Shown: positions 1-32,636 of the stretch, piece by piece
Layout of the letters: each line of letters begins with the position of its first letter
Position numbering within the stretch: the stretch's first letter is position 1
The notes under the pieces: model-generated
The model's database searches: none
What the model was told of the DNA's origin: nothing
Seen by the model: the letters and a program-made list of their open reading frames with translations, nothing else
Translations under genes and position numbers: made by a program
Virus record (IMG/VR): IMGVR_UViG_2925908680_000006
DNA from: a virus
Lineage: Duplodnaviria; Heunggongvirae; Uroviricota; Caudoviricetes
Reading direction: 5' to 3' (one strand)
Length of the DNA stretch: 37,300 nt

Positions 1-807
1 TTATGTAGCCGAAATGGTTGTGGTAATAGTCCCCCGAAGCCGCTGCGCTGCTACCTCAAAATAATGATCACTGGTTTCTATACCAATAAATTTTCGCCCT
101 GCTTTCAGTGCAGCCACACCCGTTGTCCCTGACCCCATAAAAGGATCAAGGACTGTTCCGCCACTATTCACAGTCCTGACCAGTTCCGCCATTAGTTCTT
201 CTGGTTTTCCGGTCGGGTGCATTTTCTTTGACGGGATAACCGGGTACGTCATGCAGCCGTCGAACGGCCCCGAAGGCGATTTATCTAAATGACCTTTGCT
301 GCCCCAGACGATGTATTCGCACTGATGCCTGAAATACCCCGTATGGGGTGTTCGTGACCCCCTCCCTTTGTTCCACGCAATGATGCCGCGCCATGTAAAG
401 CCGCTGGCCTGAAACGCATCGGTTAAAGCTGGTAGTTGTCGCCAGTCAGTAAATACCAAGGCATAACCGCCCGGCCTGACTGCGCGGTGTGCCTGTGCCA
501 TCCATAATTGTGTCCAGTAAGCCCACGAACGGGCGTCCATGTTTTCACCCGCGAACCCATCAAAGCGGTGAAGGTTCTCGCCGTTCAGATATTTTGCATG
601 GCTGCCCTGGTTGGTGCGTCCGGCCTTGTGTGTCGCACCCGAACTGTAAGGCGGGTCAGTGATTAAGGCATCAATGCTTTCTGGCTCAATCAGCGGCAAT
701 ATTTCCAGCGCATTCCCACGACAGAGCGTGGCATTGTCAGTCTGATAAACCTTAGTGTGTTCCGGTGTATGTGCTGGTTGGTGCTGGATTGCGATCCCCA
801 CGGTCAT
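1..807 (-). CDS. DNA amino-methyltransferase (N6-adenine or N4-cytosine), beta-class motif order
   Basis: 268 aa; DPPY catalytic motif near the N-terminus followed much later by FMGSGTTGVAA AdoMet-binding motif; ATG at 807. Confidence 0.85.
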   Translation of the reverse strand: MTVGIAIQHQPAHTPEHTKVYQTDNATLCRGNALEILPLIEPESIDALITDPPYSSGATHKAGRTNQGSHAKYLNGENLHRFDGFAGENMDARSWAYWTQLWMAQAHRAVRPGGYALVFTDWRQLPALTDAFQASGFTWRGIIAWNKGRGSRTPHTGYFRHQCEYIVWGSKGHLDKSPSGPFDGCMTYPVIPSKKMHPTGKPEELMAELVRTVNSGGTVLDPFMGSGTTGVAALKAGRKFIGIETSDHYFEVAAQRLRGTITTTISAT

Positions 808-1141: not shown

Positions 1142-1438
1142 TTAGCCATATTTGCGGGCAAAGTCTTCATCAGAGGTGCATAGATAGATAAAAAACTCAA
1201 TAAATGCCACGATTGCCGGAATGAATGTCCAGCAAAAAATAAGGTAAAGGAATCCTTGCCCCACTTTACCTAAATAAAATTTGTGTGCACCAAGACCACC
1301 TAAAAAGAAAGCCAGTAGTGCGGCTGTCATTCTGCTTTTTGAACTTGCTGTTCTTTGAGGTGCTCCACAATTGGGGCAGGATGTGGCATCTTTATGTATT
1401 TCCTTGCCGCATCCGCGACAAAATACCATTTCACTCAT
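1142..1438 (-). CDS. Zinc-ribbon plus TM2-domain membrane protein, function unknown
   Basis: 98 aa; N-terminal CRGCGK...CPNCG zinc ribbon, then two hydrophobic helices with a GG.GAHKFYLGK motif. Confidence 0.6.
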   Translation of the reverse strand: MSEMVFCRGCGKEIHKDATSCPNCGAPQRTASSKSRMTAALLAFFLGGLGAHKFYLGKVGQGFLYLIFCWTFIPAIVAFIEFFIYLCTSDEDFARKYG

Positions 1439-1904
1439 AAAGAGTTCCTTTCAAATTTAAATAAGCGTTAAGCCCCCACTCTTACTGGTGGGCCTCAATT
1501 TAAATTTGGGTGCCACTTCGACCATACCCTGGCAACCGATTGACGGGGGATTGCTCCCCCGTCGCGGTTTCCTTACTGCTTACACTGTAAGAACGCCGCA
1601 AACTCCGCTCCCCAAAAGCTCATCCGTATTTCACACAGCGAACCGTGCAGCATCCAGATGATGAGGATTACCGTCACGCAGAACGTAATGGCCGTAAGCG
1701 ATTTTTGCGACATAGCGCTTGCTCCTTTGTTGGAGAGGCGCTAACCTATCACTTGCTTAAGGTAGATATGTTAGGGCCTCGGTTAAACAGAAATGTTTTC
1801 CGGGGCCTTTCCACATCTGGCCTTCGGGTATTCCCTCCGACCATCAGCCGAAAGGCACCCGCGCGTAATCTATCGCTTTTTTGTTACTCCGGCAATTCTG
1901 CCTG

Positions 1905-2165
1905 TTAATTCTGAGATAAAGGCAAACTCATCTGATTGTTTCCTCTGTGTGAAGCTGGCAGCTCATGCCACGGGATACCTTCTGAAGAGTGAACGCCGGA
2001 GGCGTGTTTTGATGTGAATTTATGGAAAGCTTCCAGTGTTGAGAAGCATACGCCGCATTCCAGGTTGTTACACTGGTAATACTTTTGCCGCACGGTGTTT
2101 GAATCATTTTCCGGACGACTGGTGCGGATACGGGCAGATGCGCCACAAAGCGGACAACGGAACAT
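1905..2165 (-). CDS. ogr: Ogr-type zinc-finger late gene activator
   Basis: MFRCPLCGASARIRTSR...YYQCNNLECG matches the remembered P2 Ogr N-terminus and Cys pattern. Confidence 0.85.
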   Translation of the reverse strand: MFRCPLCGASARIRTSRPENDSNTVRQKYYQCNNLECGVCFSTLEAFHKFTSKHASGVHSSEGIPWHELPASHRGNNQMSLPLSQN

Positions 2166-2207
2166 AGCGACCTCCCTTAACGTGGTGCTGCCGCTATTCT
2201 AAGTTGC

Positions 2208-3317
2208 TCACTCTGTTTCTGCTATCCATTCCGGGATTTTTGCTTCAAGCTCAAGCTGCGTGGTAAAGCCACTGTTATCAATAGAGTGCTCCGCTTTTGC
2301 AATAATCCAGTCCTGATTATCAATCTCGCTTTTAAATCCTGTTACCGTGCCATGCATTTCGGGGTAGAGTTCTGCACGTCCACGCGCCAGCGTGATGGAA
2401 AATGATGCGGCTCCGCGTTGTAGTTGCTGCCACTTTGCCGCCGCTGCGCGTCTTGCTGCCTGCTCGTTCTGATAAGTCTTGCGTAACACAAACACATTGC
2501 CTTCCGCGCCTTCCATATAATCACCTTCACGGCTGCTGCTTTTCTCCTTTTTGGGTTTTGGCGGTTTACGGCGTTTCACGCTGACTTTTTTCTTTTTCCC
2601 GTAATTAAGATCAAGCCAGTAGGCGCGTACCCCCGTATACGCCTCGCGGTCAGCAATGCGGAACTGATGGCGATCGCCGCTGCTGCGTGTAATGGCGAAC
2701 GAGGGCAACGGCTGGCCCTGTGCGTTCACGCCACCACCTGGCATGATGAATAACAGATTGCCGCTTTTTACCGTGGTGATTGCGCCCAGCATTTCCGCCA
2801 TGCGCGTAAGGAAGGACATGTCGCTTTCTTCGGTCTGGTCGGCGTGGTCGATTTCGATATCCATCAGCATTTCGCTGATTTGCGGTTTCAGACCATACCG
2901 ATGAGCGATGGCGGATACCACACGCTCAACGGTCACATCATGCCAGGACACCTCACGTTTAACGTTAAATTCATCCCGAAAATCTGCGCTTCTGGCTGAA
3001 ACAGTCAGCCTGTCCGGCGGTCCTTCGTGAGCGATTTCATCAACAATGTAAGTGCCTTTTTCTGTCAGCGGTTCTCCCTTCCAGCCAATGAGAACCGTCA
3101 GGCGCGCGCCCCGTGGCGGTAGCTGCAACTGACCATCCGCATCATCCAGCGTGATGGTGAGCTGGTCCGCCTCAAATCCCCGGTTGTCGGTCAGTGACAG
3201 GCTCATCAGGCGCTCTGCCACGCCTGACAGCGTTTTACCCTCCGCGAGAATATCAAAATCCGGCATTTTCACGGGGTCTGTGCCCTGACTGAGCAATTGC
3301 ATGGTGGTGTCGGTCAT
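2208..3317 (-). CDS. D: Tail protein D (late control D family)
   Basis: 369 aa from ATG at 3317 preceded by GGGAGGG SD; LTDNRGFEADQL, SARSADFR, SWHD, GFTT motifs match remembered P2 gpD; the ORF-track N-terminal extension is ignored. Confidence 0.85.
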   Translation of the reverse strand: MTDTTMQLLSQGTDPVKMPDFDILAEGKTLSGVAERLMSLSLTDNRGFEADQLTITLDDADGQLQLPPRGARLTVLIGWKGEPLTEKGTYIVDEIAHEGPPDRLTVSARSADFRDEFNVKREVSWHDVTVERVVSAIAHRYGLKPQISEMLMDIEIDHADQTEESDMSFLTRMAEMLGAITTVKSGNLLFIMPGGGVNAQGQPLPSFAITRSSGDRHQFRIADREAYTGVRAYWLDLNYGKKKKVSVKRRKPPKPKKEKSSSREGDYMEGAEGNVFVLRKTYQNEQAARRAAAAKWQQLQRGAASFSITLARGRAELYPEMHGTVTGFKSEIDNQDWIIAKAEHSIDNSGFTTQLELEAKIPEWIAETE

Positions 3318-3474
3318 CTGCTCCCTCCCTGTGTGGCATGGTCGCATGTGCGTGCGGAGGGGGTTACTGCTTTTTGTTGTCGCCGTGGCGGGAGAATGGC
3401 GCAGGGGTGAGATTACGCGCGTGGTGGGTGATGATTGTTGCCGAATCATTTAACGGATACAAGGGGCTGAAGCT

Positions 3475-4659
3475 ATGAGTGAAACTCGTTTTCATGGTGC
3501 CCGTGTTACGGAAAATACCGACCTGGTAACAGCGATTAACGATGTTGATTCCAGCGTTATCGGTATCGTGGCAACGGCGGATGATGCGGACGCGAAGCTG
3601 TTCCCGCTGAACAAGCCCACACTGCTGACCCGCGTCAATGACGTGCTGGGAAAATGCGGAACAACGGGGACGCTTTATCGTGCGCTTAAGGCCATCGCAG
3701 ACCAGGTGAGCACAAAGGTGATCGTCGTTCGCGTGGCTGAACACAAAGAAGAAGACGGAAAGACGCAGGATCAACTGGTTATCGGTGGTTCTGAGGATGA
3801 CGGCAGCTATACGGGGATGTATGCGCTGCTTGTTGCAGAGCAGGATGAAAGCATCGGATACCGTCCGCGTATTCTGGCCGCGCCGGAGCTGGACACGGAG
3901 GCTGTAACAAAATCCCTGTGCGTGATTGCAGGTAAACTGCGCGCGTTTGTGTATGCCTCATGTCACGGCTGTAACACGATGGCTGAGGCGATTACCTACC
4001 GCCAGAAATTCAACGAACGTGAGGTGATGCTCTTATGGCCGGACTTCATCGCCTACAACCCGAAAAGTGGCAAAAACGAAACGTTCCCCGCGCCTGCCTA
4101 TGCGTGCGGCCTTCGTGCGTACATTGACCATGAGCAGGGATGGCACAAATCACTGTCCAACGTTCCGGTTAAAAATGTGCTGGGGATGTCGAGGCATGTG
4201 TTCTGGTCGTTACAGGCCGAAGACAGTGATGCCAACAGCCTCAACAACAAAGAAATCACGACCATTATTCGTCGCAACGGGTTCCGCTTCTGGGGCAACC
4301 GCACACCGGAAACGAACGCCTACATCTTTGAGGTGTATACCCGAACCGCACAGGTGCTGGCTGATTCAATTGCGGAAGCGCAGTTTGAAACCATCGACAG
4401 TCCACTGACGCCTGCGAACGTGAAGGATGTTATCAGTGCCATCAGGGCAAAACTGGATTCACTGGTTACTGCCGGGAAACTGATTGGCGCGGAGTGCTGG
4501 TATGACGTGGTGGATAACAGCACCACGGATTTACGTCAGGGACGTGTGCGTATTCGCTACAAATATACGCCCGTTCCGCCACTGGAAGACATGGAGCTTT
4601 ACCAGACGTTTACTGATGAATACTTTGAACCCGCATTTGCGGTGCTGGGAGGTGCCTGA
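3475..4659 (+). CDS. FI: Tail sheath protein FI
   Basis: 394 aa; FPLNKP, LRAF, GWHK, RFWGNRT, YTPVPPLE motifs match remembered P2 gpFI. Confidence 0.92.
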   Translation: MSETRFHGARVTENTDLVTAINDVDSSVIGIVATADDADAKLFPLNKPTLLTRVNDVLGKCGTTGTLYRALKAIADQVSTKVIVVRVAEHKEEDGKTQDQLVIGGSEDDGSYTGMYALLVAEQDESIGYRPRILAAPELDTEAVTKSLCVIAGKLRAFVYASCHGCNTMAEAITYRQKFNEREVMLLWPDFIAYNPKSGKNETFPAPAYACGLRAYIDHEQGWHKSLSNVPVKNVLGMSRHVFWSLQAEDSDANSLNNKEITTIIRRNGFRFWGNRTPETNAYIFEVYTRTAQVLADSIAEAQFETIDSPLTPANVKDVISAIRAKLDSLVTAGKLIGAECWYDVVDNSTTDLRQGRVRIRYKYTPVPPLEDMELYQTFTDEYFEPAFAVLGGA

Positions 4660-5171
4660 TGGCTGTGCCAAAACATCTTCGCTTTTTTACGCTGTTTGTG
4701 GATGGTGAAAACGAAGTGGGTAAGGTGACGTCCGTCACTCTGCCTAAGCTGACGCGCAAAACCGACAGCTACCGGGGTGGTGGCATGATGGGGGCGGTAA
4801 GTATTGATCTCGGCCTGGACGACTCCGCGCTTGATGCGAGCTTTGTCATGGGGGGCGCAGTTCGTGAGCTGTTCCTTAAGTATGGCGGCACGATTGACGG
4901 CACACTGCTGCGTTTTGCGGGTGAATACTACACCGATGCAGAAAGCGACCTGTATGAAGTCGAAATGCGCGGACGTGTGACGGAAATTGATATGGGGGAA
5001 GCCAAACAGGGCGAAGCCACATCACACACTTATGCCATTAAAAACACCTACTACAAGCTGAGTGTTAACGATCGCCCGTTGTGGGAGATTGACCTGCTGA
5101 ACTTCATTTACCGGAAGGACGGCAAGGACATTGTGCCCGATCGCATCCGTTCCGCGCTTGGGCTTGGCTGA
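4659..5171 (+). CDS. FII: Tail tube protein FII
   Basis: 170 aa; start overlaps the FI stop (TGATG); size and position match P2 gpFII. Confidence 0.85.
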   Translation: MAVPKHLRFFTLFVDGENEVGKVTSVTLPKLTRKTDSYRGGGMMGAVSIDLGLDDSALDASFVMGGAVRELFLKYGGTIDGTLLRFAGEYYTDAESDLYEVEMRGRVTEIDMGEAKQGEATSHTYAIKNTYYKLSVNDRPLWEIDLLNFIYRKDGKDIVPDRIRSALGLG

Positions 5172-5225
5172 TAAGTAATATGCAGGCGGCGCAGTGCGTC
5201 GCCTCTGACTGAAAGGAGTTTCCTG

Positions 5226-5591
5226 ATGAAAGAGACGAAAAACATCGATACCGAAAACACGGTAGTTACTGACACTGTGAAAGAAACCAGTGAGCGTGGC
5301 GTAAAACTTACCCAACCAATTGAGCGAAGCGGCGAAAAAATCACGTATGTGGAGATCACCGGGGCTATTGAGCAGGCTGGATCTCTGCGAGATTTGTCGC
5401 TGTCTGATGTGCTGAGTCTGAAAGCGGAATCCATGTTTACGCTGCTGTCACGCGTGACATCACCGCGACTGGATGAAGTGACGATCAAAAAAATGGCATC
5501 CCGTGACTTTATTCAGTTATGTGTGGTTGCCGTAAATTTTTTGAGCGGTGCGGACTCTGGCGGGAAGAACGAACAGGCGACGGAAGCCTGA
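5226..5591 (+). CDS. E: Tail assembly chaperone E
   Basis: 121 aa between tube and tape-measure genes; contains the slippery site. Confidence 0.8.
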   Translation: MKETKNIDTENTVVTDTVKETSERGVKLTQPIERSGEKITYVEITGAIEQAGSLRDLSLSDVLSLKAESMFTLLSRVTSPRLDEVTIKKMASRDFIQLCVVAVNFLSGADSGGKNEQATEA

Positions 5592-5755
5592 TCACGGTTG
5601 TGTGCTTTGAGCACATAGAAGACTTTGTGGCAGATATTGCCGTTATTTTTAACTGGTCGCCCGCCGAAATCTTCATGATGACGCCCGGCGAAGTGGTTAG
5701 CTGGCGTGAGCGGGCGGCACTTCGCAGCGGGAATGCAGACAATGAAGACTCTTGA
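5226..5755 (+). CDS. E': Tail assembly chaperone E+E' (-1 frameshift product)
   Basis: The -1 frame is open from the TTTTTTG heptamer at 5538-5544 to 5755 and ends inside the tape-measure start. Confidence 0.7.
5538..5544 (+). other. Programmed -1 ribosomal frameshift slippery heptamer TTTTTTG
   Basis: T6G in frame N_TTT_TTG within E, with the -1 ORF open downstream. Confidence 0.7.
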
Positions 5756-8549
5756 TATCCGGGTCGCTTTCAGCGCCGTTGACAGGCTGACCCGACCTGC
5801 CGAAAACGCACGCCGCCTGATGGGGCAGTTTGGTGACTCCATCCAGCGAACGCAGGGGGCGATCAAAAATCTCGAGCGTCAGGCGCGTTCATTTGAGCGC
5901 GCCCGCGACGCTGTCAGTAAAGCGGATGCGGGTATCGTGAAAGCACGACGCCAGCTTAACGCCCTTAATCAGTTACAACGCACGGGTACAGTGCTCAGCG
6001 AAAAACAACAAAAGCTGATGCAGCAGTTAAGCACCCGGCTTGAACGCCTGAATGAATCGCGCACACGGGAAATTCAGAAAATGCGGGAGCTTGGCGGAGA
6101 GCTGAAACGCCACGGCATTTCCCTGACAGGCAGCGATAACACCATCCAGCAGGCCATCAGACGCACCGAACAGTACAACAACCAGCTTGAACGCGAACGG
6201 CAGGCGCTTGCGCGTGTAACGCGGGCGCGTGAGCGGTATTCGCGCGCGCAGGAAACAGCGGGAAAACTGAAAACAGGTGGTGCGCTGGCAATTGGTGCGG
6301 CAGCGGCGGGCGGCTATGCTGCCGGGCGTTTTTTGCAGCCTGCGATCGGGTTCGGGAAAGAGATGTCCCGCGTTCAGGCACTGACGCGAATCGACAAAAA
6401 CAGCCCGCAGTTTAAGGCGCTGCGTGAGCAGGCGTTAAAACTTGGCTCTGAAACGCAGTTCACCGCAGGCGATGCCGCCAGTGGGCAGGCATTTCTTGCA
6501 ATGGCTGGCTTCACACCGCAGGCCATTCAGGCTGCGCTTCCGGGCGTGCTGAGCATGGCAACGGCTGGCGGTATGGACCTTGGCGAGACGGCGGATATTG
6601 GCTCAAATATCCTGACGCAGTTCGGCCTCTCCGCTGACCAGATGGACCGGGTCGGTGACACGCTTACAGCAGCGTTTACCCGTACTAACACTGACCTTCG
6701 CGCGCTGGGCGAAACCATGAAATATGCAGGTCCGGTGGCGGGTAAGCTGGGAATATCGCTGGAGCAGGCCGCAGCGATGGCGGGCGTGCTGGCGAATATG
6801 GGTATCAGAGGGAGTGATGCCGGGACGGCAATGCGTGCCAGCCTGGCTCGTCTGGCATCACCGCCAAAGGCGGCAGCAGAGGCGCTGAAAGAGCTTGGCG
6901 TGTCTGTCTCGGATGCCGGGGGCAAAATGCGCCCGATGGAGGATGTGCTGGCTGACCTTTATAAAGCTACCCGCAAATACGGGGAAGTTGACCGGGTATC
7001 GTTCTTTAAGGACATTGCCGGAGAAGAGGCTTTCACATCATTTATGGCCCTCGTTGATGCGGCAGGTGACGGCTCCTTACCCAAACTGAGAAAAGAACTT
7101 GAAGGCGCGCGCGGTGAGGCTGAACGCACGGCAAAGGTTATGGCCAACAACCTTGACGGCGATCTGAAATCACTCAGCAGTGCATGGGAAGGGTTGCGCA
7201 TCCGCATTGCAGATCTGATTGACGGTCCGCTGCGTTCTGTCACGCAGTGGCTCACGCGTGTGGTATCAAAGGTGACGGCGCTGGCGCAGGCCCATCCCGC
7301 ACTGACGCGCCAGCTACTGATTGCAGGCGGCGCACTGCTGGCAATGACTGCAACGGTTGGCTCGTTGTCGCTGGCTATTGGTGTGCTTGCTGGCCCGCTG
7401 ACAAAACTGCGTCTTGGTTTTTCCCTCCTGACCGGATCAATGAATGCTGTCAGGGTTCTGCCAGCACTATGGGGAATGGTGACGGGTTCCGTTTCTTTAC
7501 TGGGAGGCGCTATCGGGGCGTTGTTCAGTCCGGTTGGTCTTATCGTGGCTGCGCTTGCCGGAGCTGCCGTTCTTATCTGGAAATACTGGGATCCCATCAG
7601 GGCATTTTTTGCCGGGGTGTTCAGCGGGATTATGGAAAGGCTGACCCCGTTGCGCGAAACCTTTGAACGGTTTGGTCCTGTTTTTGACGCAATCGGGAGT
7701 GGGATCAGCCAGGTGTTTAACTGGTTTAAATCGCTGCTGTCACCGATGGAGTCCAGCAAGGAAACGCTGGATAAATGTACCAGTGCTGGCGAGATATTCG
7801 GTAACGTTCTTGGCGGTGCGTTACAACTTGTTCTGACACCTGCAAAAATGTTGCTGGATACGCTGGCGTGGATACTTGAAAAGCTCGGTGTGCTTCCGGA
7901 TGAAGCGGAAAGGGCGCGCAAGAAAATCGAAGACGCACAGCGTGCGGCCATTCTTCAGGACAAGGTTGCCTTGCTTCAGGGGGACCTGGCGAAAATCAAT
8001 CCGCCGAAGCCTGTGGAAAATGGCAATGGCACCGGAGGTGATAAACCCAAAGACAACAAACCGCTCACAGACAGCAATACCGGTACGCTACGCAGACTCA
8101 GCAAAATTGCTGATAACACAGGTAAGCTGGTTGATGAGACGAAAAAACGTATTGGCCCCGGCGATATTGTCTTTAAGAACCTGCCCCGCGCACTTGCCGT
8201 TCGTGGGGAGTGGCAGGAGCGGAAGATTGCGCAGGTCAGTAAGCCTGCCCCCGCAATTAATATCACACCTGTGGTTCCGGCTCCGCTGCCTCCGGCGCTG
8301 GTCCCTGTTGTTGCGGCCAGCTCCCGCCCGGTGGCAGAGGCCATACGATCGCCAGTGGCATCAGTTCCTGCAACTTCCCGTAACCGGGAGCCTGTTGCCT
8401 GCGGATTTGGCGGTGAAATTCATGTTCATCTGCATAACGTTGTTACACAGAATCCCCGCGAACTGGCGAAACTGGTCGGTGAAATGGTCAGGGCAGAAAT
8501 GGAACGGCGCGCCCGTGCCGGGCGTGGCAGTTTTTACGATAAAGATTGA
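5733..8549 (+). CDS. T: Tail tape-measure protein T
   Basis: About 938 aa; coiled-coil N-terminus, Gly/Ala-rich hydrophobic middle; position after E/E'. Confidence 0.9.
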   Translation: MQTMKTLDIRVAFSAVDRLTRPAENARRLMGQFGDSIQRTQGAIKNLERQARSFERARDAVSKADAGIVKARRQLNALNQLQRTGTVLSEKQQKLMQQLSTRLERLNESRTREIQKMRELGGELKRHGISLTGSDNTIQQAIRRTEQYNNQLERERQALARVTRARERYSRAQETAGKLKTGGALAIGAAAAGGYAAGRFLQPAIGFGKEMSRVQALTRIDKNSPQFKALREQALKLGSETQFTAGDAASGQAFLAMAGFTPQAIQAALPGVLSMATAGGMDLGETADIGSNILTQFGLSADQMDRVGDTLTAAFTRTNTDLRALGETMKYAGPVAGKLGISLEQAAAMAGVLANMGIRGSDAGTAMRASLARLASPPKAAAEALKELGVSVSDAGGKMRPMEDVLADLYKATRKYGEVDRVSFFKDIAGEEAFTSFMALVDAAGDGSLPKLRKELEGARGEAERTAKVMANNLDGDLKSLSSAWEGLRIRIADLIDGPLRSVTQWLTRVVSKVTALAQAHPALTRQLLIAGGALLAMTATVGSLSLAIGVLAGPLTKLRLGFSLLTGSMNAVRVLPALWGMVTGSVSLLGGAIGALFSPVGLIVAALAGAAVLIWKYWDPIRAFFAGVFSGIMERLTPLRETFERFGPVFDAIGSGISQVFNWFKSLLSPMESSKETLDKCTSAGEIFGNVLGGALQLVLTPAKMLLDTLAWILEKLGVLPDEAERARKKIEDAQRAAILQDKVALLQGDLAKINPPKPVENGNGTGGDKPKDNKPLTDSNTGTLRRLSKIADNTGKLVDETKKRIGPGDIVFKNLPRALAVRGEWQERKIAQVSKPAPAINITPVVPAPLPPALVPVVAASSRPVAEAIRSPVASVPATSRNREPVACGFGGEIHVHLHNVVTQNPRELAKLVGEMVRAEMERRARAGRGSFYDKD

Positions 8550-8555
8550 GGAGTC

Positions 8556-9050
8556 ATGGCCATGATGATGATCTACGGCATGTTTGTTTTTGAGCTGCGC
8601 ACGCTGCCGCATCAGCAGTTACAGCAAAACAAAAGCTGGCGGCATGTGAAAAATGAACGCGTTAACCGTTCAGCAAGCTGGCAGTATATCGGTGCAGGTG
8701 ATGATCGCATCGTTCTTTCTGGTGTGCTTTATCCTGAAATTACAGGTGGCGAAGTGTCGCTGTCGCTGCTGACCACGCAGGCGTATACAGGACGACCCTG
8801 GCCTTTGATTGATGGCGTCGGGCAGATTTACGGCATGTATGTCCTGACCGGAACGAATACGACCCGTTCCGAGTTTGATCGCTACGGTAAGGCGAAAAAG
8901 ATAGAATTTTCACTGACCCTTGAACGCTGTGATGAGGATTTGCGGGAGCGCCTGCAATCCTCATCGTTCAGCGATATGCTGTCCGGCTTCAAAGATAAGG
9001 TGACATCATCTCTTAACAGCGCGGCCAGTTCAGTTAAAGGGCTGTTCTGA
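8556..9050 (+). CDS. U: Tail protein U
   Basis: 164 aa starting MAMMMIYGMFVF, resembling the remembered P2 gpU N-terminus; follows T. Confidence 0.8.
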   Translation: MAMMMIYGMFVFELRTLPHQQLQQNKSWRHVKNERVNRSASWQYIGAGDDRIVLSGVLYPEITGGEVSLSLLTTQAYTGRPWPLIDGVGQIYGMYVLTGTNTTRSEFDRYGKAKKIEFSLTLERCDEDLRERLQSSSFSDMLSGFKDKVTSSLNSAASSVKGLF

Positions 9051-9054
9051 TTTA

Positions 9055-9100
9055 ACACAAAAACCGCTAATGGTCAGATTAGCGGTTATTTTGTTTTCTG
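9055..9100. terminator. Bidirectional terminator between convergent U and invertase genes
   Basis: Perfect 10-bp stem aaccgctaat / attagcggtt (9062-9087) flanked by A/T tracts on both sides. Confidence 0.7.
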
Positions 9101-9673
9101 ACTCTTCTCTATTGTTCCGCTTGATTCTCCTGCGGGGTGGTAACGATAAATCGTCGATGTACCAATGCCGTAAATTATTGCCAGTTGTTTTCTGTCGTGA
9201 CCGTTTTTAATCAGCCTTGCTATTTGCTCATGCTGTTCTTTTGTCAGCTTCGGGCGACGTCCGCCTGTGCGCCCCCGTGCGCGCGCTGCTGCCAGTCCGG
9301 CCAGTGTACGTTCAACAATTAATTCACGTTCCATTTCAGCCAGGGCACCCATCACGTGGAAGAAAAAACGCCCCATTGGAGAAGATGTATCTATGCTGTC
9401 GGTCAGACTGCGAAAATTAATCCCTCGCTCCCGTAGTTCCCCGACGAGAGAAATCAGATGTTTCATGCTTCGCCCGAGGCGATCCAGTTTCCAGACAACC
9501 AGCGTGTCACCTTTTTGAAGGCGCTTTAAAGCGCGTTTTAATCCCGGTCGGTCTGTCTTTGTCCCGCTTAATTTATCTTCAAATATTTGTTCACATCCTG
9601 CACAAACAAGAGCGTTTCGTTGCAGGTCTGTATTCTGGTCATTTGTTGATACCCTTACATAGCCAATCAGCAC
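9086..9673 (-). CDS. gin: Serine DNA invertase (Gin/Hin/Pin/Cin family)
   Basis: LIGYVRVSTNDQNTDLQRNAL...GDTLVVWKLDRLGRSMKHL is near-identical to remembered Mu Gin; likely GTG start at 9673; C-terminal HTH. Confidence 0.93.
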   Translation of the reverse strand: MLIGYVRVSTNDQNTDLQRNALVCAGCEQIFEDKLSGTKTDRPGLKRALKRLQKGDTLVVWKLDRLGRSMKHLISLVGELRERGINFRSLTDSIDTSSPMGRFFFHVMGALAEMERELIVERTLAGLAAARARGRTGGRRPKLTKEQHEQIARLIKNGHDRKQLAIIYGIGTSTIYRYHPAGESSGTIEKSQKTK

Positions 9674-9727
9674 GCTGAATCTCCCGTCCAAAAGCGTAAA
9701 TCATGCCATGCAGGTCAGAAACGGCCA

Positions 9728-9766
9728 TTATCTAAAACCTCGGTTTACAGGAAACGGTAAACAGGG
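9728..9766. repeat. Left gix-type recombination site (inverted repeat)
   Basis: ttatctaaaacctcggtttacaggaa matches the Mu gix consensus; shares a 23-bp inverted repeat with 12767-12805. Confidence 0.85.
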
Positions 9767-10758
9767 CTGGTAACGCCGTGCAAAAAAATGGCGATACCTT
9801 GTCCGGTGGGCTTACTTTTGAAAACGACTCAATCCTTGCCTGGATTCGAAATACTGACTGGGCAAAGATTGGTTTTAAAAATGATGCCGATAGCGATACT
9901 GATTCATACATGTGGTTTGAAACAGGCGACAACGGCAATGAATATTTCAAATGGAGAAGCAAACAAAGCACCACAACAAAAGACCTGATGAATCTTAAAT
10001 GGGATGCTTTGTCTGTTCTTGTTAAAGCCCTTTTCAGCAGTGAAGTAAAAATATCGACAGTCAATGCACTGAGGATATTTAATTCATCTTTTGGTGCCAT
10101 TTTTCGCCGTTCTGAAGAATGCCTGCATATCATCCCTACACGAGAGAATGAGGGGGAAAATGGCAATATAGGGCCGCTACGCCCCTTTACGCTTAATCTC
10201 AGAACTGGTCGCATAAATATGGGGCATGGTCTGGATGTTACAGGAGATATAACAACTAACGCATGGGTGTACGCAAACCGCCTTGCAATTAACAGCAGCA
10301 CAGGCATGTGGATTCATATGCGTGACCAGAATGTTATTTTTGGACGTAATGCGGTATCCACTGATGGTGCTCAGGCTTTGCTCCGTCAGGACCATGCCGA
10401 CCGCAAATTTATGATTGGCGGTCTGGGAAATAAGCAATTTGGCATCTACATGATTAATAACTCAAGGACAGCCAATGGCACCGATGGTCAGGCGTACATG
10501 GACAATAACGGTAACTGGCTTTGCGGTGCGCAAATTATTCCCGGAAATTATGGCAATTTTGACTCACGCTATGTGAGAGATGTCCGACTTGGCACACGTG
10601 TTGTTCAATTGATGGCGCGTGGAGGGCGTTATGAAATAGCCGGACACGCACTTACCGGATTAAGGATTATTGGTGAAGTTGATGGCGATGATGAAGCTAT
10701 CTTCAGGCCGATACAAAAATACATCAATGGCATATGGTATAACGTCGCACAGGTGTAA
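9742..10758 (+). CDS. Alternative tail-fibre variable C-terminal cassette (no own start; fuses to H constant part after inversion)
   Basis: Reading frame continues from gixL as [33 protein letters not shown]..., matching the remembered C-terminal half of P2 gpH; ends ...[11 protein letters not shown]. Confidence 0.8.
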
Positions 10759-10761
10759 ATT

Positions 10762-11287
10762 ATGCAGCATTAAAAAATATTAAGTCTGGAAATCCAAAAA
10801 CAAAAGAACAATATCAGCTAACAAAGAATTTTGATGTTATCTGGTTATGGTCCGAAGACGGAAAAAACTGGTATGAGGAAGTGAAAACTTTCAGCCAGAC
10901 ACAATAAAGATTGTTTACGATGCAAATAATATTATTGTCGCCATCACCAAAGATGCCTCCACGCTTAACCCTGAAGGTTATAGCGTCGTTGAGGTTCCTG
11001 ATATCACAGCTAATCGTCGTGCTGATGATTCCGGTAAGTGGATGTTTAAGGACGGAGCTGTGGTTAAACGGATTTATACGGCAGACGAGCAACAACAACA
11101 GGCCGAATCACAAAAGGCCGCGTTACTTTCCGAAGCAGAAAACGTTATTCAGCCACTGGAACGCGCTGTCAGGCTGAATATGGCGACGGATGAGGAACGC
11201 GCACGACTGGAGTCATGGGAACGCTATAGTGTTCTGGTCAGCCGTGTGGATACGGCAAATCCTGAATGGCCACAAAAGCCTGAATAA
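10762..11287 (+). pseudogene. G: Tail-fibre assembly gene (G/Tfa-like), interrupted by two 1-nt frame disruptions
   Basis: ATG at 10762 hits TAA after 3 codons; conserved N-peptide [16 protein letters not shown] is in the -1 frame; body from about 10896 is in a third frame and ends ...[15 protein letters not shown]...PEWPQKPE. Confidence 0.5.
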
Positions 11288-11315
11288 AAATTAAGGCCCG
11301 ATAGCGGGCCTTGTT

Positions 11316-11845
11316 TCATTCTGGTTGTTCTGGAAACGTTACTGGCAGGCTGGAGGTGTCTGTGGATTCGACCTTCTGCGCATAGAGCATCCACTCGGTT
11401 AATTTTTGTTTATTCTCGTCGGAAATGATACCCAGCCGTAGCTGTGAGTCCCATAGCTGGGTTTTATCCCTGACAAGTTGCAACAGGCTTTGCTTTTCAT
11501 TCTCTGCCTGCTGCCTCTGTTCCTCCTCGGTATAAGTTCGCTTTATCACTACGCCATCTTTGAACATCCATTTACCCGAAATATCAGCCCGGCGATTTGC
11601 TGTAATATCAGGTAATTCAACGACGCTTGCGCCTTCCGGATTAATTGCTGAAACATCCTTTTCAATACAAATATAACGCGTTATGGTCATAGACCATTTT
11701 CAAAGTGTCTGGCTGGAAATTCTTTTGTTCTCATACCAGTTTTTTCCATCATCTGAATAAAGCCATTTGATGTTAAATTGCTTTGTTAGCTGGTATTGCT
11801 CTTTTGTTTTAGGGTTGCCAGCAGTAATGTTTTTAAGTGCATCAT
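11316..11845 (-). pseudogene. Second tail-fibre assembly gene (G'-like), interrupted by several 1-nt frame disruptions
   Basis: ATG-ATG at 11845 is out of frame with the conserved peptide [22 protein letters not shown]; in-frame TGA at about 11700; [17 protein letters not shown] readable only in an alternative frame; intact C-terminal body 11316-11690. Confidence 0.5.
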
Positions 11846-11847
11846 CG

Positions 11848-12792
11848 TTAAATACTCCCCGCGTTATACCACGTCCCATTAATGCAATACTGAATTGGCC
11901 TTGCCTGAGTTGTATCACTTAATTCATCACGGTTCCCGTAACTGAACCGTACGACATAACCTGACCTGTCAGACCAGGCCGGGGCCATTCCATGTCTGAA
12001 CAGATGACAGACCGCCAAGGCGAATACCTGTAATAACCTTGAGTTACATTCTGCCCGCGTATATGCACCAACATCTCCCGCAGAGGGTTTGCGGGTTGTG
12101 GTGTAAAACTCTGACCAGTCAGCTTCAAAGCCATAACCATCTCGCGCTGAACGATAATAAATACCGCCGTTCTTATAATTCACACGGAACTGAACCGCCG
12201 GGCAACTCCCCGCATTCATATTAAAGTGAAGAATCAATGTTGACGCTCCACTAATAGTCGCATCATAAACGCCGCTATTCCAGTTCCAGCCAACAGCTTT
12301 ATCATTGCAAACCCTGCTTCTGTTGCCTAAGCAATGCAGGCGGTGTTTTTACGTGTGTAGTCTCTCGCAGCCAGGAGAATAAACCATCACCATGGATAAT
12401 ATAGGTGAATTGGCGTTAGAATTCCGCCACCACTTGGACGTGCTCGGGTGGTAACGCGTTATGGTTCATTTTACGCCCGGGGGTTCCCCACCTCAATCAC
12501 GGCTCCGGCAGGCAGATATGTCCAAAACCGGGATTCCGTAAAACCTGTTTCTGGCATAGGACCATGAACCTTTACACATCCAGTATGGATGTCGGAAAGC
12601 TCGTTTCTCCAGCCACGAAATTAATGCAACTGTCGACCATCAACCTTGGAACCATCGATATCAGTCCTCGCCGCTAAATGCACGACAAAAGCCCCTGTGT
12701 CTTGTATTGAATTTATTTCTATTTCGGAATATCTGCACCTGCTTCTTGTTTCGTATGCCTCAGAAGGCCTGTTTACCGTTTCCTGTAAACCG
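11848..12792 (-). pseudogene. Degenerate alternative tail-fibre variable cassette (currently joined to the H constant part)
   Basis: Fibre-like C-terminus ...[17 protein letters not shown] at 11848-12237 is in a different frame from H, and 12238-12620 has no ORF of 60 aa or more in any frame. Confidence 0.5.
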
Positions 12793-14201
12793 AGGTATTC
12801 GATAACGGCAGCAACGGTCGATTTCGCAAGAATATCCCGCCCGACTTTTGTCAGGGTTGCCAGGCTGGCGACATCATTCCCCGTAAAATACGGAAACTTG
12901 TCTGCCGCAGTAGCAAGCCCGGCCAGCGCCGTCAGGGTGGCATCTTTCGGTTGCTTACCCGCAAGCGCGTTAGTCATGGTGGTCGCAAAATTCGGGTCGT
13001 TTCCCAGCGCCGCCGCTAACTCGTTCAGCGTATTCAGTGCGTCAGGTGACGAATCTACAAGGGCGGCAATCGCAGCCATAACGAAAGCCGTGCTTGCGAT
13101 TTGGGTATTATTCGTTCCCTGTCGCGCAGTTGGCGTTGTTGGCGTTCCGGTCAACGCAGGACTGTTTAAGGGCGCTTTCTTGTTCGTTTCATCCATTACC
13201 GCCTTAACCGCTTTCGATGTCGCGGCCAGTGTTTCAGACGTGCTGTTGGTGGCACTACTGAGCTGGACTATCCCTTTTTGTGCCGTCGTGGCGTCCTGAG
13301 CGGTATATTTTGCGTTAGCAAGGTCATACGCGGCCTTTACTGCTTTCGGCGTTGCAGCCTGCGTTTCAGACGTGCTGTTGGTGGCGCTACTGAGCTGGAC
13401 AAGGCCTTTTCGTGCCGTCGTGGCGTCCTGAGCGGTATATTTTCCGTTAGCCAGGTCATACGCGGCCTTTACTGCTTTCGGCGTTGCAGCCTGCGTTTCA
13501 GACGTGCTGTTGGTGGCGCTACTGAGCTGGACAAGGCCTTTTCGTGCCGTCGTGGCGTCCTGAGCGGTATATTTTCCGTTAGCCAGGTCATACGCGGCCT
13601 TAACCGCTTTCGGCGTTGCAGCCTGCGTTTCAGACACGCTGTTAGTGGCGCTACTGAGTTGAACAAAGCCTTTTGCGGTCAGCGAGGCGTCCGGGTGACG
13701 TCGTGACTGTTCATGCTCTTTCAGTTTGTCATCCACGTAATCCACTGTGGCCATCACCATGGTGTTATCCACGGTAAGCGCCACGGTGGCCGTGCTGGAT
13801 ACGGTCAGAATGGTGCGAAATGTTTGTGCACGACCGGACCCTTCAGCAACGGCTGGCTTGTAACTTTCGGCAGTATTGCCCACCGCGATTAAATCGCCGT
13901 GCTCATCAAATACACCAATTTCCCGGATCCAGAATCCGCCCGTTTCAGGAGGAATAACCAGCTCCGCAATAATGCGGTTCTGATGTGTTGCGTCCAGGAT
14001 GACGCGATTAACTGTGTGTCGCCACACCTCATGCACCAGACGGGTCTGCTTACTGTCTGGTGTGAGCAACGTGCCGCCACCGTCGCCCACGGCCATATGA
14101 GTCAGGCGAACAGGCTTACCATCTGGCGCGGCTGCCTGAGCTAATTTTTTGGCACCTGTATCGGTGATAACGGTTTTAAATTTTCGTGTTGTGGTACTCA
14201 T
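12621..14201 (-). CDS. H: Tail fibre protein H: constant N-terminal part (12793-14201) plus a short 45-codon tail in the present orientation
   Basis: N-terminal 470 aa match remembered P2 gpH including the QLSSATNS...TPKAVKAAYDLANGKY repeats; after the gixR-encoded GLQETVNR it reads PSEAYETRSRCR... and stops. Confidence 0.85.
   Translation of the reverse strand: MSTTTRKFKTVITDTGAKKLAQAAAPDGKPVRLTHMAVGDGGGTLLTPDSKQTRLVHEVWRHTVNRVILDATHQNRIIAELVIPPETGGFWIREIGVFDEHGDLIAVGNTAESYKPAVAEGSGRAQTFRTILTVSSTATVALTVDNTMVMATVDYVDDKLKEHEQSRRHPDASLTAKGFVQLSSATNSVSETQAATPKAVKAAYDLANGKYTAQDATTARKGLVQLSSATNSTSETQAATPKAVKAAYDLANGKYTAQDATTARKGLVQLSSATNSTSETQAATPKAVKAAYDLANAKYTAQDATTAQKGIVQLSSATNSTSETLAATSKAVKAVMDETNKKAPLNSPALTGTPTTPTARQGTNNTQIASTAFVMAAIAALVDSSPDALNTLNELAAALGNDPNFATTMTNALAGKQPKDATLTALAGLATAADKFPYFTGNDVASLATLTKVGRDILAKSTVAAVIEYLGLQETVNRPSEAYETRSRCRYSEIEINSIQDTGAFVVHLAARTDIDGSKVDGRQLH
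12767..12805. repeat. Right gix-type recombination site (inverted repeat)
   Basis: ttcctgtaaaccgaggtattcgataa; inverted copy of the 9728-9766 site. Confidence 0.85.
13230..13700 (-). repeat. In-frame tandem repeats of 123 bp (41 aa), about 3.8 copies, inside the fibre gene
   Basis: Repeated unit GxVQLSSATNSxSETQAATPKAVKAAYDLANGKYTAQDATTARK at protein and nucleotide level. Confidence 0.85.
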
Positions 14202-14203
14202 GC

Positions 14204-14734
14204 TTAATCGTCCGGATAAATGGTAATAACTTCACCGTCATAAGTTGCCGCCGCTGCGAAAATATCCCCCGGAATTTCCTGAATGATATTCAGCCCTGTC
14301 ATGTGGCGGCTGACCGGACGGGCATCAGCAATCAACCGCTCCATTTCCAGATACATTTCCTCCGTCACGCCACTGTCCAGTGTGCCGACTTCAACGGTAA
14401 ATGTTCCCGGTTCTCCGCCGAACTCCCACCACTCAGACACGCGAATGAGGTATCCCAGCGGCTCAATGGCCCTGCGCAGTGCGCTGATGGTCCCTTTGTG
14501 TCGGTGTATCAGCCATGCATCACGAATCACCTGTCGTTTTGTCTCTTCCGGCCAGTTGCGATCCCAGCGGTCAACGGAAAATGCCCAGGCGAGATAAGGC
14601 AGCAGGTGCACCGGGCAGGTGTCCGGCGACCACAGCGTGTTGAGGTCTACCGGGATGTCTGTAATGCGCGTTCCGACAGCTTCGGCACAACGCATGAAAC
14701 TGCTGGCTGATGGTGGTAACAGTGAATTACTCAT
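14204..14734 (-). CDS. I: Baseplate/tail protein I
   Basis: 176 aa from ATG at 14734; position and size match P2 gpI. Confidence 0.8.
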   Translation of the reverse strand: MSNSLLPPSASSFMRCAEAVGTRITDIPVDLNTLWSPDTCPVHLLPYLAWAFSVDRWDRNWPEETKRQVIRDAWLIHRHKGTISALRRAIEPLGYLIRVSEWWEFGGEPGTFTVEVGTLDSGVTEEMYLEMERLIADARPVSRHMTGLNIIQEIPGDIFAAAATYDGEVITIYPDD

Positions 14735-15623
14735 TGCGCCCACCTTCGCTGATGGTGAACGACTCACAGCGCGCCGCCTGTATGTCGCTGATGGCCATAT
14801 TCTGTGTGGGTTCGATTATCTCCACGCGTTGCACACCGTGCACATGCAGTGCGGCAGCAATGGCGGACAACGCCACGTCCTGACCGATAAGCCCCTGCTC
14901 AGCCAGCCACTTCCTGAACGACGATTCAGCCGCCGCCAGAATAGGTTCGGATTCCGGGCCGGGGTAAAAGTACAGTTTTGCATTCAGCCGCCATGTCACG
15001 ATTCTGGCGCTCTGTACAGTAAGGCGGTCGGCCACCGGGCGGGTATCCTCTGCATTCAGAACGGCGCGAACGGTATTAAGCAACGCCTCCGTTGCTGTGC
15101 CGTCGCCTTCAGTGGACAGGATGGAAACCGTCACATTTGCCGGAGACGGACTGATAGCCCGCGCATCACGCACCAGACCGCTGGCGCTGCGGGCAAAATA
15201 CTCGTATGCACCTGACGGGCCAGCAACACTCAGGCCATCGTACGCCCGCTGCGCCCGCAGTCTCAGCGAGGTGTCACTTTCCATCACTGCGTCGGTGGTA
15301 TCCGTTGCCGGAGTGATGGTCAGGCGCTTTGTGTTCATATTGCCCGCGAGGTTGTCCAGGTCTGTCCCGGCGCTGTGGCTTAACATGCAGGCGCGTGCCC
15401 CCTCATTGACCCGCTGGCGTAACAGCATTTCACGAAACGCTGTTGTCTGGGCGATAACGTTCAGGGGTTCCGATTCCAGCTCCAGCGCGGCGGAGACGGC
15501 TTCACGCTGTTCGGCGGGATAAGCCGCAATCATCATGGCCTTTGTGTCAGCCAGAATTGCCTCAAAGTCAGGCTCCGCGATGATGGCGGGTTCCGGTAAC
15601 TGGGAAAGGTCAACGGCGGGCAT
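14727..15623 (-). CDS. J: Baseplate assembly protein J
   Basis: 298 aa; size and position as P2 gpJ. Confidence 0.85.
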   Translation of the reverse strand: MPAVDLSQLPEPAIIAEPDFEAILADTKAMMIAAYPAEQREAVSAALELESEPLNVIAQTTAFREMLLRQRVNEGARACMLSHSAGTDLDNLAGNMNTKRLTITPATDTTDAVMESDTSLRLRAQRAYDGLSVAGPSGAYEYFARSASGLVRDARAISPSPANVTVSILSTEGDGTATEALLNTVRAVLNAEDTRPVADRLTVQSARIVTWRLNAKLYFYPGPESEPILAAAESSFRKWLAEQGLIGQDVALSAIAAALHVHGVQRVEIIEPTQNMAISDIQAARCESFTISEGGRNE

Positions 15624-15626
15624 GAT

Positions 15627-15977
15627 TTACTCCCTCAGCGTGATGGTTAACTCAACATTCTGCATGGTCTGCATGACAGTGCCCGACAGCGTCACCCCGG
15701 CGCGGCCTCCCGCTTTCCAGACAACGTCGATGGCATCCAGGGCAATGCGGGGTTCCCATCGTGTCAGCGCAATCACGGCAGCACTCATGCATTGCAGACG
15801 CGTGGTGTTATTCATGGGTTCGTCAATCAAATCAGGCACAAGGCTGCCATATTCCCGTCGCATAACCCGGCTTGCCAGCGGGGTGGTCAGGATATCCCTG
15901 ACTGACTGTTTCAGGTGCTCCATATCGTTCAGGTTTCCCGTCCCGTCCGGATTCATTCCTGTGTAGCGGGTTGTCAC
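15627..15977 (-). CDS. W: Baseplate protein W (gp25/GPW family)
   Basis: 116 aa; conserved position between V and J. Confidence 0.85.
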   Translation of the reverse strand: MTTRYTGMNPDGTGNLNDMEHLKQSVRDILTTPLASRVMRREYGSLVPDLIDEPMNNTTRLQCMSAAVIALTRWEPRIALDAIDVVWKAGGRAGVTLSGTVMQTMQNVELTITLRE

Positions 15978-31966: not shown

Positions 31967-32038
31967 TGCGGCAATCCTCTGGTTACAGATGTGCGAAGGC
32001 CTCCCGCCGCAAGGTGCAGGAAAGGCCCGGAACAGGAA

Positions 32039-32269: not shown

Positions 32270-32280
32270 GATATGTGGCC

Positions 32281-32630: not shown

Positions 32631-32636
32631 GTGTCA

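Follow-up and report, generated by a model that had tools for sequence, protein, structure and literature searches.

Inverted FI-U tail operon order is fixed in a large clade of P2-like phages and probably accommodated by a shared Ogr box

RESULTS

The FI-U operon lies in reverse orientation between D and the invertase gene

The window (the whole stretch of DNA analyzed here, 37,300 nucleotides) very probably represents a P88-like prophage that has the gene order standard for its clade, derived by one ancestral inversion of FI-U, and whose late regulon was probably rewired via a shared Ogr box. The inverted FI-U block is the fixed ancestral order of a large and viable P2-like clade and is therefore ordinary, neither a recent rearrangement nor an assembly error. 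Gene identities and strands were taken from the ORF list and from PHROGs and Pfam searches, as follows.

1905-2165, minus strand: ogr, Ogr/Delta zinc-finger late activator, 86 aa (Pfam PF04606 Ogr_Delta, E = 5e-14)
2208-3317, minus strand: D, baseplate hub/late control D, 369 aa (phrog_52, E = 3e-167; PF05954 Phage_GPD)
3318-3474: D-FI spacer between divergent genes, 157 bp
3475-4659, plus strand: FI, tail sheath (phrog_23, E = 1e-127)
4659-5171, plus strand: FII, tail tube (phrog_55, E = 8e-60; major tail tube in the P88 and SEN5 annotations)
5226-5591, plus strand: E, tail assembly chaperone (phrog_103)
5519-5755, plus strand: E' extension, -1 frame ORF, tail assembly chaperone (PF06528 GpE)
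5706-8549, plus strand: T, tape measure protein (phrog_28, E = 2e-216)
8556-9050, plus strand: U, tail protein, final gene of the inverted block (phrog_76, E = 8e-75)
9051-9085: U-gin spacer between convergent genes, with a hairpin
9062-9087, both strands: hairpin, predicted bidirectional terminator of convergent U and gin
9086-9691, minus strand: gin, Gin/Hin/Cin-family serine DNA invertase (phrog_125, E = 7e-97; PF00239 and PF02796)
9724-12809: invertible tail-fiber segment, with 45-nt inverted repeats (9724-9768 and 12765-12809) carrying gix-type cores
12621-16555, minus strand: H, I, J, W, and V (tail fiber and baseplate), contiguous with S and R upstream

Every component of the P2-like (Peduoviridae) contractile-tail module is present (FI, FII, E/E', T, U, D, and Ogr/Delta), each with a PHROGs and Pfam match. 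A 72-aa ORF at 1928-2146 was rejected as ogr, being in the wrong frame. A 413-aa ORF for D reaching 3449 was likewise rejected as an overcall: homology begins at about residue 43, and the ATG at 3317 is preceded by the Shine-Dalgarno sequence GGGAGGG.

FI-U (3475-9050) is on the plus strand, and D/ogr (1905-3317), the invertase gene, and H to V are on the minus strand. These assignments bear out the original prediction, made from the sequence without database searches, both in the strands of the blocks and in the divergence of D from FI across about 157 bp and the convergence of U with gin, between which the hairpin lies. In the annotated P2 record (NC_001895), V-G, FI-D, and ogr all lie on the same strand, as the original prediction had it. 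The P2 order, with FI-FII-E-T-U-D-ogr co-directional with V-W-J-I-H-G, is not that of the window, and the single in-place inversion of about 5.7 kb that had been proposed relative to P2 holds as a difference in order.

The window shares with the P2 F operon (FI FII E E' T U D) the gene set, the internal order from FI to U, and an Ogr/Delta gene after D with its own promoter predicted at the matching position, although protein identities are only 31 to 62%. In P2, D is the final F-operon gene, runs in the same direction as U, and overlaps U, whereas in the window D is a separate, divergent unit whose N-terminal ~18 aa do not align with P2 D. The closest named match is P88 (NC_026014/KP063541), where ogr-D-FI-FII-E-T-U-invertase is 98.9% identical over 8.3 kb in one collinear piece, with the same annotated strands, including divergent D and FI and convergent U and invertase; P884B11 and Citrobacter phiSM are relatives of P88. 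P88 differs from the window in the tail-fiber tip region (H is 88% identical, and the content of the invertible segment is different) and slightly in the length of T. On the 98.9% identity over 8.3 kb and the collinear order, we assign the window to a P88-like (Xuanwuvirus-type) prophage of the P2 family.

The inverted order is common, old, and monophyletic

A query spanning the D-FI junction was collinear, in one piece, in 1,358 of 5,426 complete Escherichia coli genomes (about 25%), and a query spanning the U-gin junction was collinear in 621. A 6.5-kb query, to which E. coli ETEC4090 is an exact match, hit 1,362 genomes at ≥80% coverage; it was dropped as a diagnostic in favor of the junction-spanning queries because the block alone makes up 86% of it.

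We then surveyed 218 loci from GTDB genomes, IMG/VR, and phage records. The inverted order was found in 126/126 informative loci whose D is 62 to 100% identical to that of the window, and the P2 order in 88/88 loci with D identity of 43 to 54%; no loci were sampled between 54 and 62%, so that the node of the inversion is bracketed by that gap only. None of the 218 loci had a mixed order. The inverted loci span about 20 named Enterobacterales genera, and in neighbor-joining trees of D, FI, FII, and U they form a single clade with no canonical member inside. This clade includes Xuanwuvirus, Senquatrovirus, Reginaelenavirus, and unnamed prophages, and is characterized by a D-FI spacer of ~125 to 160 bp and D at least 62% identical; the window fits on each count. 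Annotation agrees for the named members P88 (Xuanwuvirus), SEN5 (Senquatrovirus), and Klebsiella 3LV2017 (Reginaelenavirus), which are assigned to three different ICTV genera.

The canonical P2 order is found in Wadgaonvirus, Felsduovirus, Kapieceevirus, Citexvirus, Baylorvirus, Entnonagintavirus, Aresaunavirus, and Burkholderia KS5. Wadgaonvirus 500465-1 resembles the window in having an invertase gene between the invertible fiber segment and the sheath operon, and Felsduovirus RE-2010 has the same modules with no invertase annotated; unlike in the window, FI-U-D-ogr are co-directional in both, and their D is only 52 to 53% identical to the window's. P2 gene order characterizes the type phage and not the family as a whole.

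The original prediction had implied something peculiar to this sequence, whether a misassembly or an event of recent date, and that implication fails: the arrangement is shared by P88, SEN5, 3LV2017, the 1,358 E. coli genomes, and all 126 clade loci. The synteny comparison with relatives proposed at the time thus returned a lineage norm.

Neither inverted repeats nor gix-type sites flank the block

A search of positions 2000 to 10000 for inverted repeats pairing the two breakpoint regions (3318-3474 and 9051-9085) found none above chance, only chance-level pairs and the terminator hairpin, in agreement with the earlier impression that the breakpoints carry no obvious repeats. Segments inverted by Gin/Hin/Cin enzymes have inverted crossover sites of ~26 bp with a core of the AAACC-NN-GGTTT type, and the FI-U block has no such sites. 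The only gix-type cores in the window, at 9735 and 12787, both belong to the tail-fiber segment (9724-12809), which is the only invertase substrate found in the window and shares ~90% identity with the Mu G and P1/P7 C segments.

The stem of the hairpin at 9062-9087 is preceded by an A-run and followed by a T-run, and the hairpin was called on both strands. In a crude scan downstream of U across the clade, a terminator was flagged in 22/95 stretches, and we propose the U-gin terminator only for the window together with its closely related loci.

The D-FI spacer contains a conserved Ogr-type box flanked by mirrored -10-like hexamers

Late promoters of P2 depend on Ogr and carry the motif TGT-N12-ACA (PMC3931495). 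The following elements were predicted in the window.

2196-2201, minus strand: predicted -10 of the ogr promoter, TAGAAT, 6 nt past the D stop codon; the P2 ogr promoter is at the same place
3338-3343, minus strand: predicted -10 of the D promoter, GACCAT, 35 nt from the box edge; predicted transcription start site (TSS) ~3331
3378-3395: Ogr-type activator box TGTCGCCGTGGCGGGAGA, TGT-N12-AGA
3430-3435, plus strand: predicted -10 of pF, GATGAT, 35 nt from the box edge; predicted TSS ~3442
22530-22547: second Ogr-type box TGTAAGAAAACGGCCAGA, in the P-O spacer, flanked on either side by -10-like hexamers at offset 35/36

The box at 3378-3395 is the most conserved element of the spacer across D identities of 62 to 100%. 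It has one mismatch to the dyad TGT-N12-ACA, its right half being AGA where 36/102 relatives' spacers have ACA; the boxes of P2 pF and pO likewise depart from the dyad, having CCA. Hexamers of the form nAnnAT show a sharp peak at offset 35 on both sides of the box, clade-wide. On the FI side, nAnnAT stands at offset 35 in 79/102 unique spacers; on the D side, it stands at offset 35 in 64/102 and at offset 36 in 7 more, and is absent from both positions in 31, with the caveat that the 102 unique spacers are phylogenetically related and these counts overstate independent support. The D side additionally has a block, TTTCA(C/T)GCGCGCG, that is conserved together with the hexamer at a fixed distance from the box across D identities of 62 to 100%.

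The same geometry occurs in P2, where the -10 elements of pP, pO, and pF (GAAAAT in pF) likewise lie 35 nt from the box edge, relative to mapped TSSs. The P2 counterpart of the D-FI pair is P-O: a single annotated site (3057-3087) serves both pP and pO, with TSSs at 3016 and 3127, and a TGT-N12-(A/C)(C/G)A box lies midway between the divergent genes, both TSSs being ~55 nt from its center. The D-FI pair of the window is a prediction, and the window also has a P-O pair of the same design. The P-O box supports TGT-N12-AGA as the likely late-promoter box of this phage. A window-wide scan for the composite of box and -10 returned 5 matches against 3.1 expected, which is no enrichment; 3 of the 5 are in the two divergent late spacers, and no candidate was found upstream of V.

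Taken together, these data suggest that D probably has a promoter, which would be Ogr dependent, divergent, and served by the box that it shares with FI. The D-side hexamer of the window (GACCAT) is weak, and the predicted D leader is only ~14 nt. To the left of the pF box, FI upstream regions of the P2 type have V-operon terminators and variable sequence only and no promoter resembling that of the D side; because of this, the predicted D-side promoter was not simply carried over. The original prediction held that the inversion separates D from the FI promoter. It was right in that cotranscription of D with FI-U has ended and wrong in that the activator site of pF was kept, with D directly on its other side. 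It had also allowed that relatives might share the order as a norm with a D promoter of its own, and such a promoter is probably present, given the conserved Ogr box and the mirrored -10 elements predicted in the spacer.

Alternative explanations

The order is unlike that of P2 and D has lost its place downstream of pF, as would be the case had one prophage undergone a recent private inversion or been misassembled, leaving D stranded and the prophage possibly defective. We consider this reading hardly credible, since the same junction is present in the 1,358 complete and mostly long-read-finished E. coli genomes, in the genomes of P88, P884B11, phiSM, and SEN5, each sequenced independently from virions or induced phage, and in every informative locus of the clade, and since P88 and phiSM, which can be induced or show spontaneous activity, form infectious particles. 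The related Serratia prophage PP4 was induced and gave P2-like particles in transmission electron microscopy. Programmed flipping of FI-U by the adjoining Gin-type invertase, with the window caught in one of two states, is suggested by the position of the serine invertase gene (9086-9691), and enzymes of this type can use secondary sites. It is nonetheless extremely improbable: gix-type cores and inverted repeats surround the tail-fiber segment only, none pair the two breakpoint regions, SEN5 and 3LV2017 have the identical order without any invertase, and the opposite state occurs in 0/126 clade loci. Phage genomes are mosaic, and T (24 to 36%) and E (~30%) are very divergent from P2, so the sheath-tube-tape-measure module might instead have come from another phage by horizontal transfer and have replaced the resident block in reverse orientation. 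We regard such a replacement as quite unlikely. FI, FII, and U show the same degree of relatedness to P2-type phages as D, V, W, and J on the flanks (about 42 to 55%; individually, FI 46 to 51%, U 46 to 49%, D 48 to 53%, and V 47%), the tree of D, outside the block, recovers the same monophyletic clade as those of FI, FII, and U inside it, the FI-side promoter is still laid out like P2 pF and traveled with the block, and T and E evolve fast in all comparisons.

The remaining alternative accepts the order as a lineage norm and concerns the promoter of D, which could be constitutive or otherwise regulated and independent of the shared Ogr box, the conserved D-side sequence having another role. 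The weak hexamer and very short predicted leader in the window fit this explanation, as do the 31/102 spacers without D-side nAnnAT at offset 35/36. At Ogr-dependent P2 late promoters, however, the -35 and -10 elements are normally poor, and pV is annotated as leaderless in the P2 record; moreover, the D-side block and hexamer keep a fixed distance from the box throughout the clade, and this distance equals that of the mapped P2 promoters pP, pO, and pF. A D promoter independent of Ogr is therefore a possibility that we take seriously while judging it unlikely.

DISCUSSION

A proposed single inversion with a rewired late regulon

Our favored account is an ancestral inversion after which the late regulon was rewired rather than broken. 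In the ancestor of the clade, the ~5.7-kb FI-U operon would have been inverted once, together with the pF promoter, relative to P2 and the other sampled genera, with one breakpoint immediately upstream of the activator box of pF and the other where U meets D. Because no repeats are visible at the breakpoints, illegitimate recombination is the probable route; an in-place inversion and reinsertion of the same block in reverse are formally indistinguishable. The inversion would have been fixed since the clade ancestor. Because the Ogr-binding site is a near-dyad, the box would face D after the inversion, and the 157-bp spacer would carry two divergent Ogr-dependent late promoters served by a single box, the arrangement documented for pP and pO of P2. 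Rightward, pF would transcribe FI-U on the plus strand from a predicted TSS near 3442 to the bidirectional hairpin at 9062-9087. Leftward, pD would transcribe D on the minus strand from a predicted TSS near 3331, with a ~14-nt leader carrying the Shine-Dalgarno sequence, and the transcript would probably run on into ogr, which would also keep its own promoter past the D stop codon.

We lean slightly toward a broader reading, in which the inversion made a second bidirectional Ogr-dependent node, so that the whole clade would run its late regulon from two boxes, P-O and D-FI, with D-ogr as a short late unit and ogr under direct positive feedback. On this two-box reading, the near-dyad activator site would have given the stranded D access to the activator at once. 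If it is true, ogr would lie 1.1 kb from the late promoter versus 6.4 kb in P2. We found no description of a two-box bidirectional Ogr-dependent late regulon in the literature searched. Papers on P88, SEN4/SEN5, Citrobacter rodentium phiSM, and Serratia PP4 do not mention the inversion, and a broader literature search returned nothing specific.

Implications for P2-like phages

P2 provides the textbook map, yet a large and very common P2-like clade, carried by about 25% of complete E. coli genomes and by many other Enterobacterales, has its sheath operon inverted. Given how common this order is, annotation pipelines and synteny-based calls of prophage intactness should not score it as damage. 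If the promoter model is true, the clade would offer a clean natural case in which inversion of an operon was tolerated via a symmetric activator site serving both directions.

Gene order of the late region

The window is a P2-family prophage, complete or nearly so, and E. coli ETEC4090 matches its positions 2900 to 9400 at 100%. A gene map was built from six-frame open reading frames (ORFs), PHROGs, and Pfam:

1905-2165, minus strand, ogr
2208-3317, minus strand, D
3475-4659, plus strand, FI
4659-5171, plus strand, FII
5226-5591, plus strand, E (GpE-domain E' frame, 5519-5755)
5706-8549, plus strand, T
8556-9050, plus strand, U
9086-9691, minus strand, serine invertase
~9.7-12.8 kb, invertible tail-fiber segment, about 3 kb
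12621-16555, minus strand, H, I, J, W, and V, contiguous with S, R, the lysis genes, and L through O to about 22.46 kb
from 22612, plus strand, P and Q

This map agreed with the original prediction in the coordinates and strands of the FI-U block and its neighbors, in the divergent D|FI gap of about 157 bp (spacer 3318-3474, 157 bp), and in the convergence of U (plus) with the invertase gene gin (minus). Where these two genes meet lies a hairpin (9062-9087) that is called as a terminator in either direction. The annotated P2 record places V-W-J-I-H-G, FI-FII-E-T-U-D, and ogr on a single strand, with U overlapping D; compared with that record, FI-U is indeed inverted.

A longer ORF, 2208-3449, was rejected as an over-call of D (homology from near residue 43; GGGAGGG before the ATG at 3317). 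RefSeq/PGAP and the record of phage P88 annotate a small "hypothetical protein" within the D|FI spacer (3318-3449, minus strand); its frame stays open in the window from 3449 into D and overlies conserved promoter elements, and it is most likely not a gene.

The inverted order defines a clade

P88 (genus Xuanwuvirus) matched positions 1508 to 9765 at 98.9% in a single collinear piece, with annotated strands as in the window (D, minus; sheath to U, plus; invertase, minus; fiber and baseplate, minus). P884B11, Citrobacter phiSM, 500465-2, PhiR44_2, and Chuche were also collinear over the D|FI junction. An 801-nt junction query (40% D, 20% spacer, 41% FI) was covered to at least 80% in one place in 1,358 of 5,426 complete E. 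coli genomes; the U|invertase junction was likewise covered in 621, and elsewhere U adjoins something else.

Gene order was classified by tblastn with window and P2 proteins in 47 loci from GTDB species representatives (obtained via the D protein), 160 IMG/VR loci, and eleven annotated phage records. FI-U ran opposite to D in 126 loci, where D was 62 to 100% identical to the window D, and followed the P2 order in 88 (43 to 54% identity); no mixed-order locus was found among those classified. GTDB hosts of the inverted type include Salmonella, Citrobacter, Enterobacter, Klebsiella, Raoultella, Kosakonia, Kluyvera, Yokenella, Trabulsiella, Serratia, Edwardsiella, Erwinia, Pantoea, Mixta, Izhakiella, Brenneria, Pectobacterium, Symbiopectobacterium, and Rouxiella. 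Two Firmicutes-labeled GTDB records, a Vagococcus sp. WN89Y contig (L004) and a Planococcaceae MAG (L045), carried D genes 98 to 99% identical to that of the window prophage, most likely as enterobacterial DNA contamination of those assemblies. Among annotated records, SEN5 (Senquatrovirus) and Klebsiella 3LV2017 (Reginaelenavirus) have the inverted order without an invertase, and 500465-1 (Wadgaonvirus) has the canonical order with an invertase directly upstream of FI. The order is also canonical in RE-2010 (Felsduovirus), ST11-OXA48phi15.3 (Kapieceevirus), BR319a (Citexvirus), phiMhaA1 (Baylorvirus), ENT90, and RsoM1USA and, per the gene table of its paper, in Burkholderia KS5.

With BR319a or RsoM1USA (a Pseudomonas or Ralstonia phage) as the root, neighbor-joining trees of D, FI, U, and FII placed the inverted loci in one clade with no canonical member within it. 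The conclusion is that the canonical order is ancestral and that the inversion was a single event in the progenitor of a clade that is very common today. A peculiarity or misassembly of this one sequence is contradicted by the P88-type records, the E. coli genomes, and the clade loci that share the order, which is the norm among close relatives (P88, SEN5, and 3LV2017). The inversion is ancient, fixed, and clade defining, not a lesion, switch, or misassembly. As a sequence feature the arrangement is already known, records of P88 and two further ICTV genera having been public for years; the inversion goes unremarked in the literature searched on P88, SEN4/5, phiSM, and PP4. Rearranged late operons have been described in other P2-like phages, e.g., Smp131.

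A proposed shared-box promoter between D and FI

D is an essential tail gene. Infectious phage is produced by P88 and phiSM, and the related Serratia prophage PP4 is inducible, with P2-like particles seen by TEM; D must therefore be adequately expressed in the inverted arrangement.

P2 late promoters carry TGT-N12-ACA and are Ogr dependent (PMC3931495). In the P2 record, a single activator site (3057-3087) serves divergent pP and pO (transcription start sites 3016 and 3127), and the P2 sequence shows one and the same distance, 35 nt, between the box edge and the start of the -10 hexamer for pP (TAGCCT), pO (GAAACT), and pF (GAAAAT). The window D|FI spacer holds a single box, TGTCGCCGTGGCGGGAGA (3378-3395), with GATGAT (3430-3435) on the FI side and GACCAT (complement of 3338-3343) on the D side, both at an offset of 35 nt. 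Across 102 unique D|FI spacers, all from the clade, the best-conserved element was the box core, TTTTGTTGT-N12-A(G/C)A, its right half being AGA in 51 and ACA in 36. The pattern nAnnAT peaked sharply at offset 35 on both the D side (64 spacers, plus 7 at offset 36) and the FI side (79, plus 8) and was near zero at most other offsets. A conserved TTTCA(C/T)GCGCGCG block just upstream of the D-side hexamer is similar to the GC-rich run that precedes the -10 in the window P promoter and in P2 pP.

From this conservation and geometry, we infer that the spacer may be a second divergent late promoter with a shared box and predicted starts at about 3442 (plus strand) and 3331 (minus strand). The inversion was expected to cut D off from the FI promoter; the rearrangement stands, but D is probably not promoterless, given the shared conserved box with predicted -10-like hexamers on both sides. 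D probably has its own promoter rather than being stranded, and we give a promoter-capture model somewhat better than an even chance. The literature searched yielded no account of a shared-box promoter at D|FI. As in P2, ogr retains a good predicted -10 (TAGAAT, 2196-2201) immediately past the stop codon of D.

Origin of the inverted block

As originally predicted, an inverted-repeat search found no repeats pairing the D|FI and U|invertase junctions. The only gix-type cores in the window, with matching 45-nt inverted repeats, lie at 9724-9768 and 12765-12809, bounding the tail-fiber segment. Since, in addition, invertase-less members share the order and no clade member was seen with FI-U in the other orientation, the block is not a programmed switch.

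Identity to P2-type phages is 46 to 51% for FI, 42 to 48% for FII, and 46 to 49% for U inside the block and 48 to 53% for D, 47% for V, 44% for W, and 55% for J in the flanks. Because block and flank genes are about equally distant, in-place inversion appears to be a more parsimonious explanation than the uptake of a module from elsewhere. The promoter pF would have traveled with the block, because the FI-side half of the spacer retains the P2 pF layout; in P2-type relatives, the DNA left of the pF box is variable or is a V-operon terminator. The N terminus of D (first ~18 residues) cannot be aligned with P2 D and differs among clade members, which would fit a breakpoint at the U/D overlap.

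Other elements of the prophage

The 45-nt inverted repeats at the ends of the 3-kb invertible fiber segment (9724-12809) are 91% complementary and contain gix-type cores; the segment shares about 90% identity with the Mu G and P1/P7/D108 segments. Inverted repeats of ~159 nt (10762-10920 and 11687-11845) lie inside it, between two alternative fiber-tip and chaperone cassettes. On the minus strand of the early region, hits at the Rfam gathering level to C4 antisense RNA (32326-32413, 81 bits) and isrK (32449-32523, 67 bits) fall within or beside a repressor-like ORF (31963-32637); by sequence match, 32326-32523 is a P1/P7-type c4-like immunity element within a P2-like prophage. The replication initiator A (28772-31594, minus strand) has 940 aa versus 761 in P2, about 180 residues extra.

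Downstream of ogr lies a 46-aa hok/gef-type toxin ORF (1572-1712, minus strand; "MokW-like host killing" in the P88 record), followed by a strong hairpin (1541-1564); Rfam gave no match to a hok/sok-type RNA at 1541-1712. Cargo beyond ogr comprises an N6/N4 DNA methyltransferase (1-807, minus strand), truncated at the edge of the window, and a zinc-ribbon/TM2-domain membrane protein (1142-1438, minus strand).

The P|O spacer and late operon layout

The window P|O spacer carries a box of the D|FI type (22530-22547), with -10-like hexamers at offset 35 or 36 in both directions (CATCAT on the O side, TAATCT on the P side). The listed O start at 22490 was rejected as an over-call; the likely true ATG is at 22457, with GAGGGG before it, and O from there begins MANEKKTSRKKFRV (P2 O, MAKKVSKFFRI). 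Given that start, the shared-box geometry is as in P2 pP/pO. S (16552-17196, minus strand) and V (15974-16555, minus strand) overlap, without a P2-like orf30 or pV gap, and no Ogr-type box was found upstream of V, which suggests that the baseplate and fiber genes are probably transcribed within the O operon. If they do belong to it, the late genes of this lineage may run from only two box regions.
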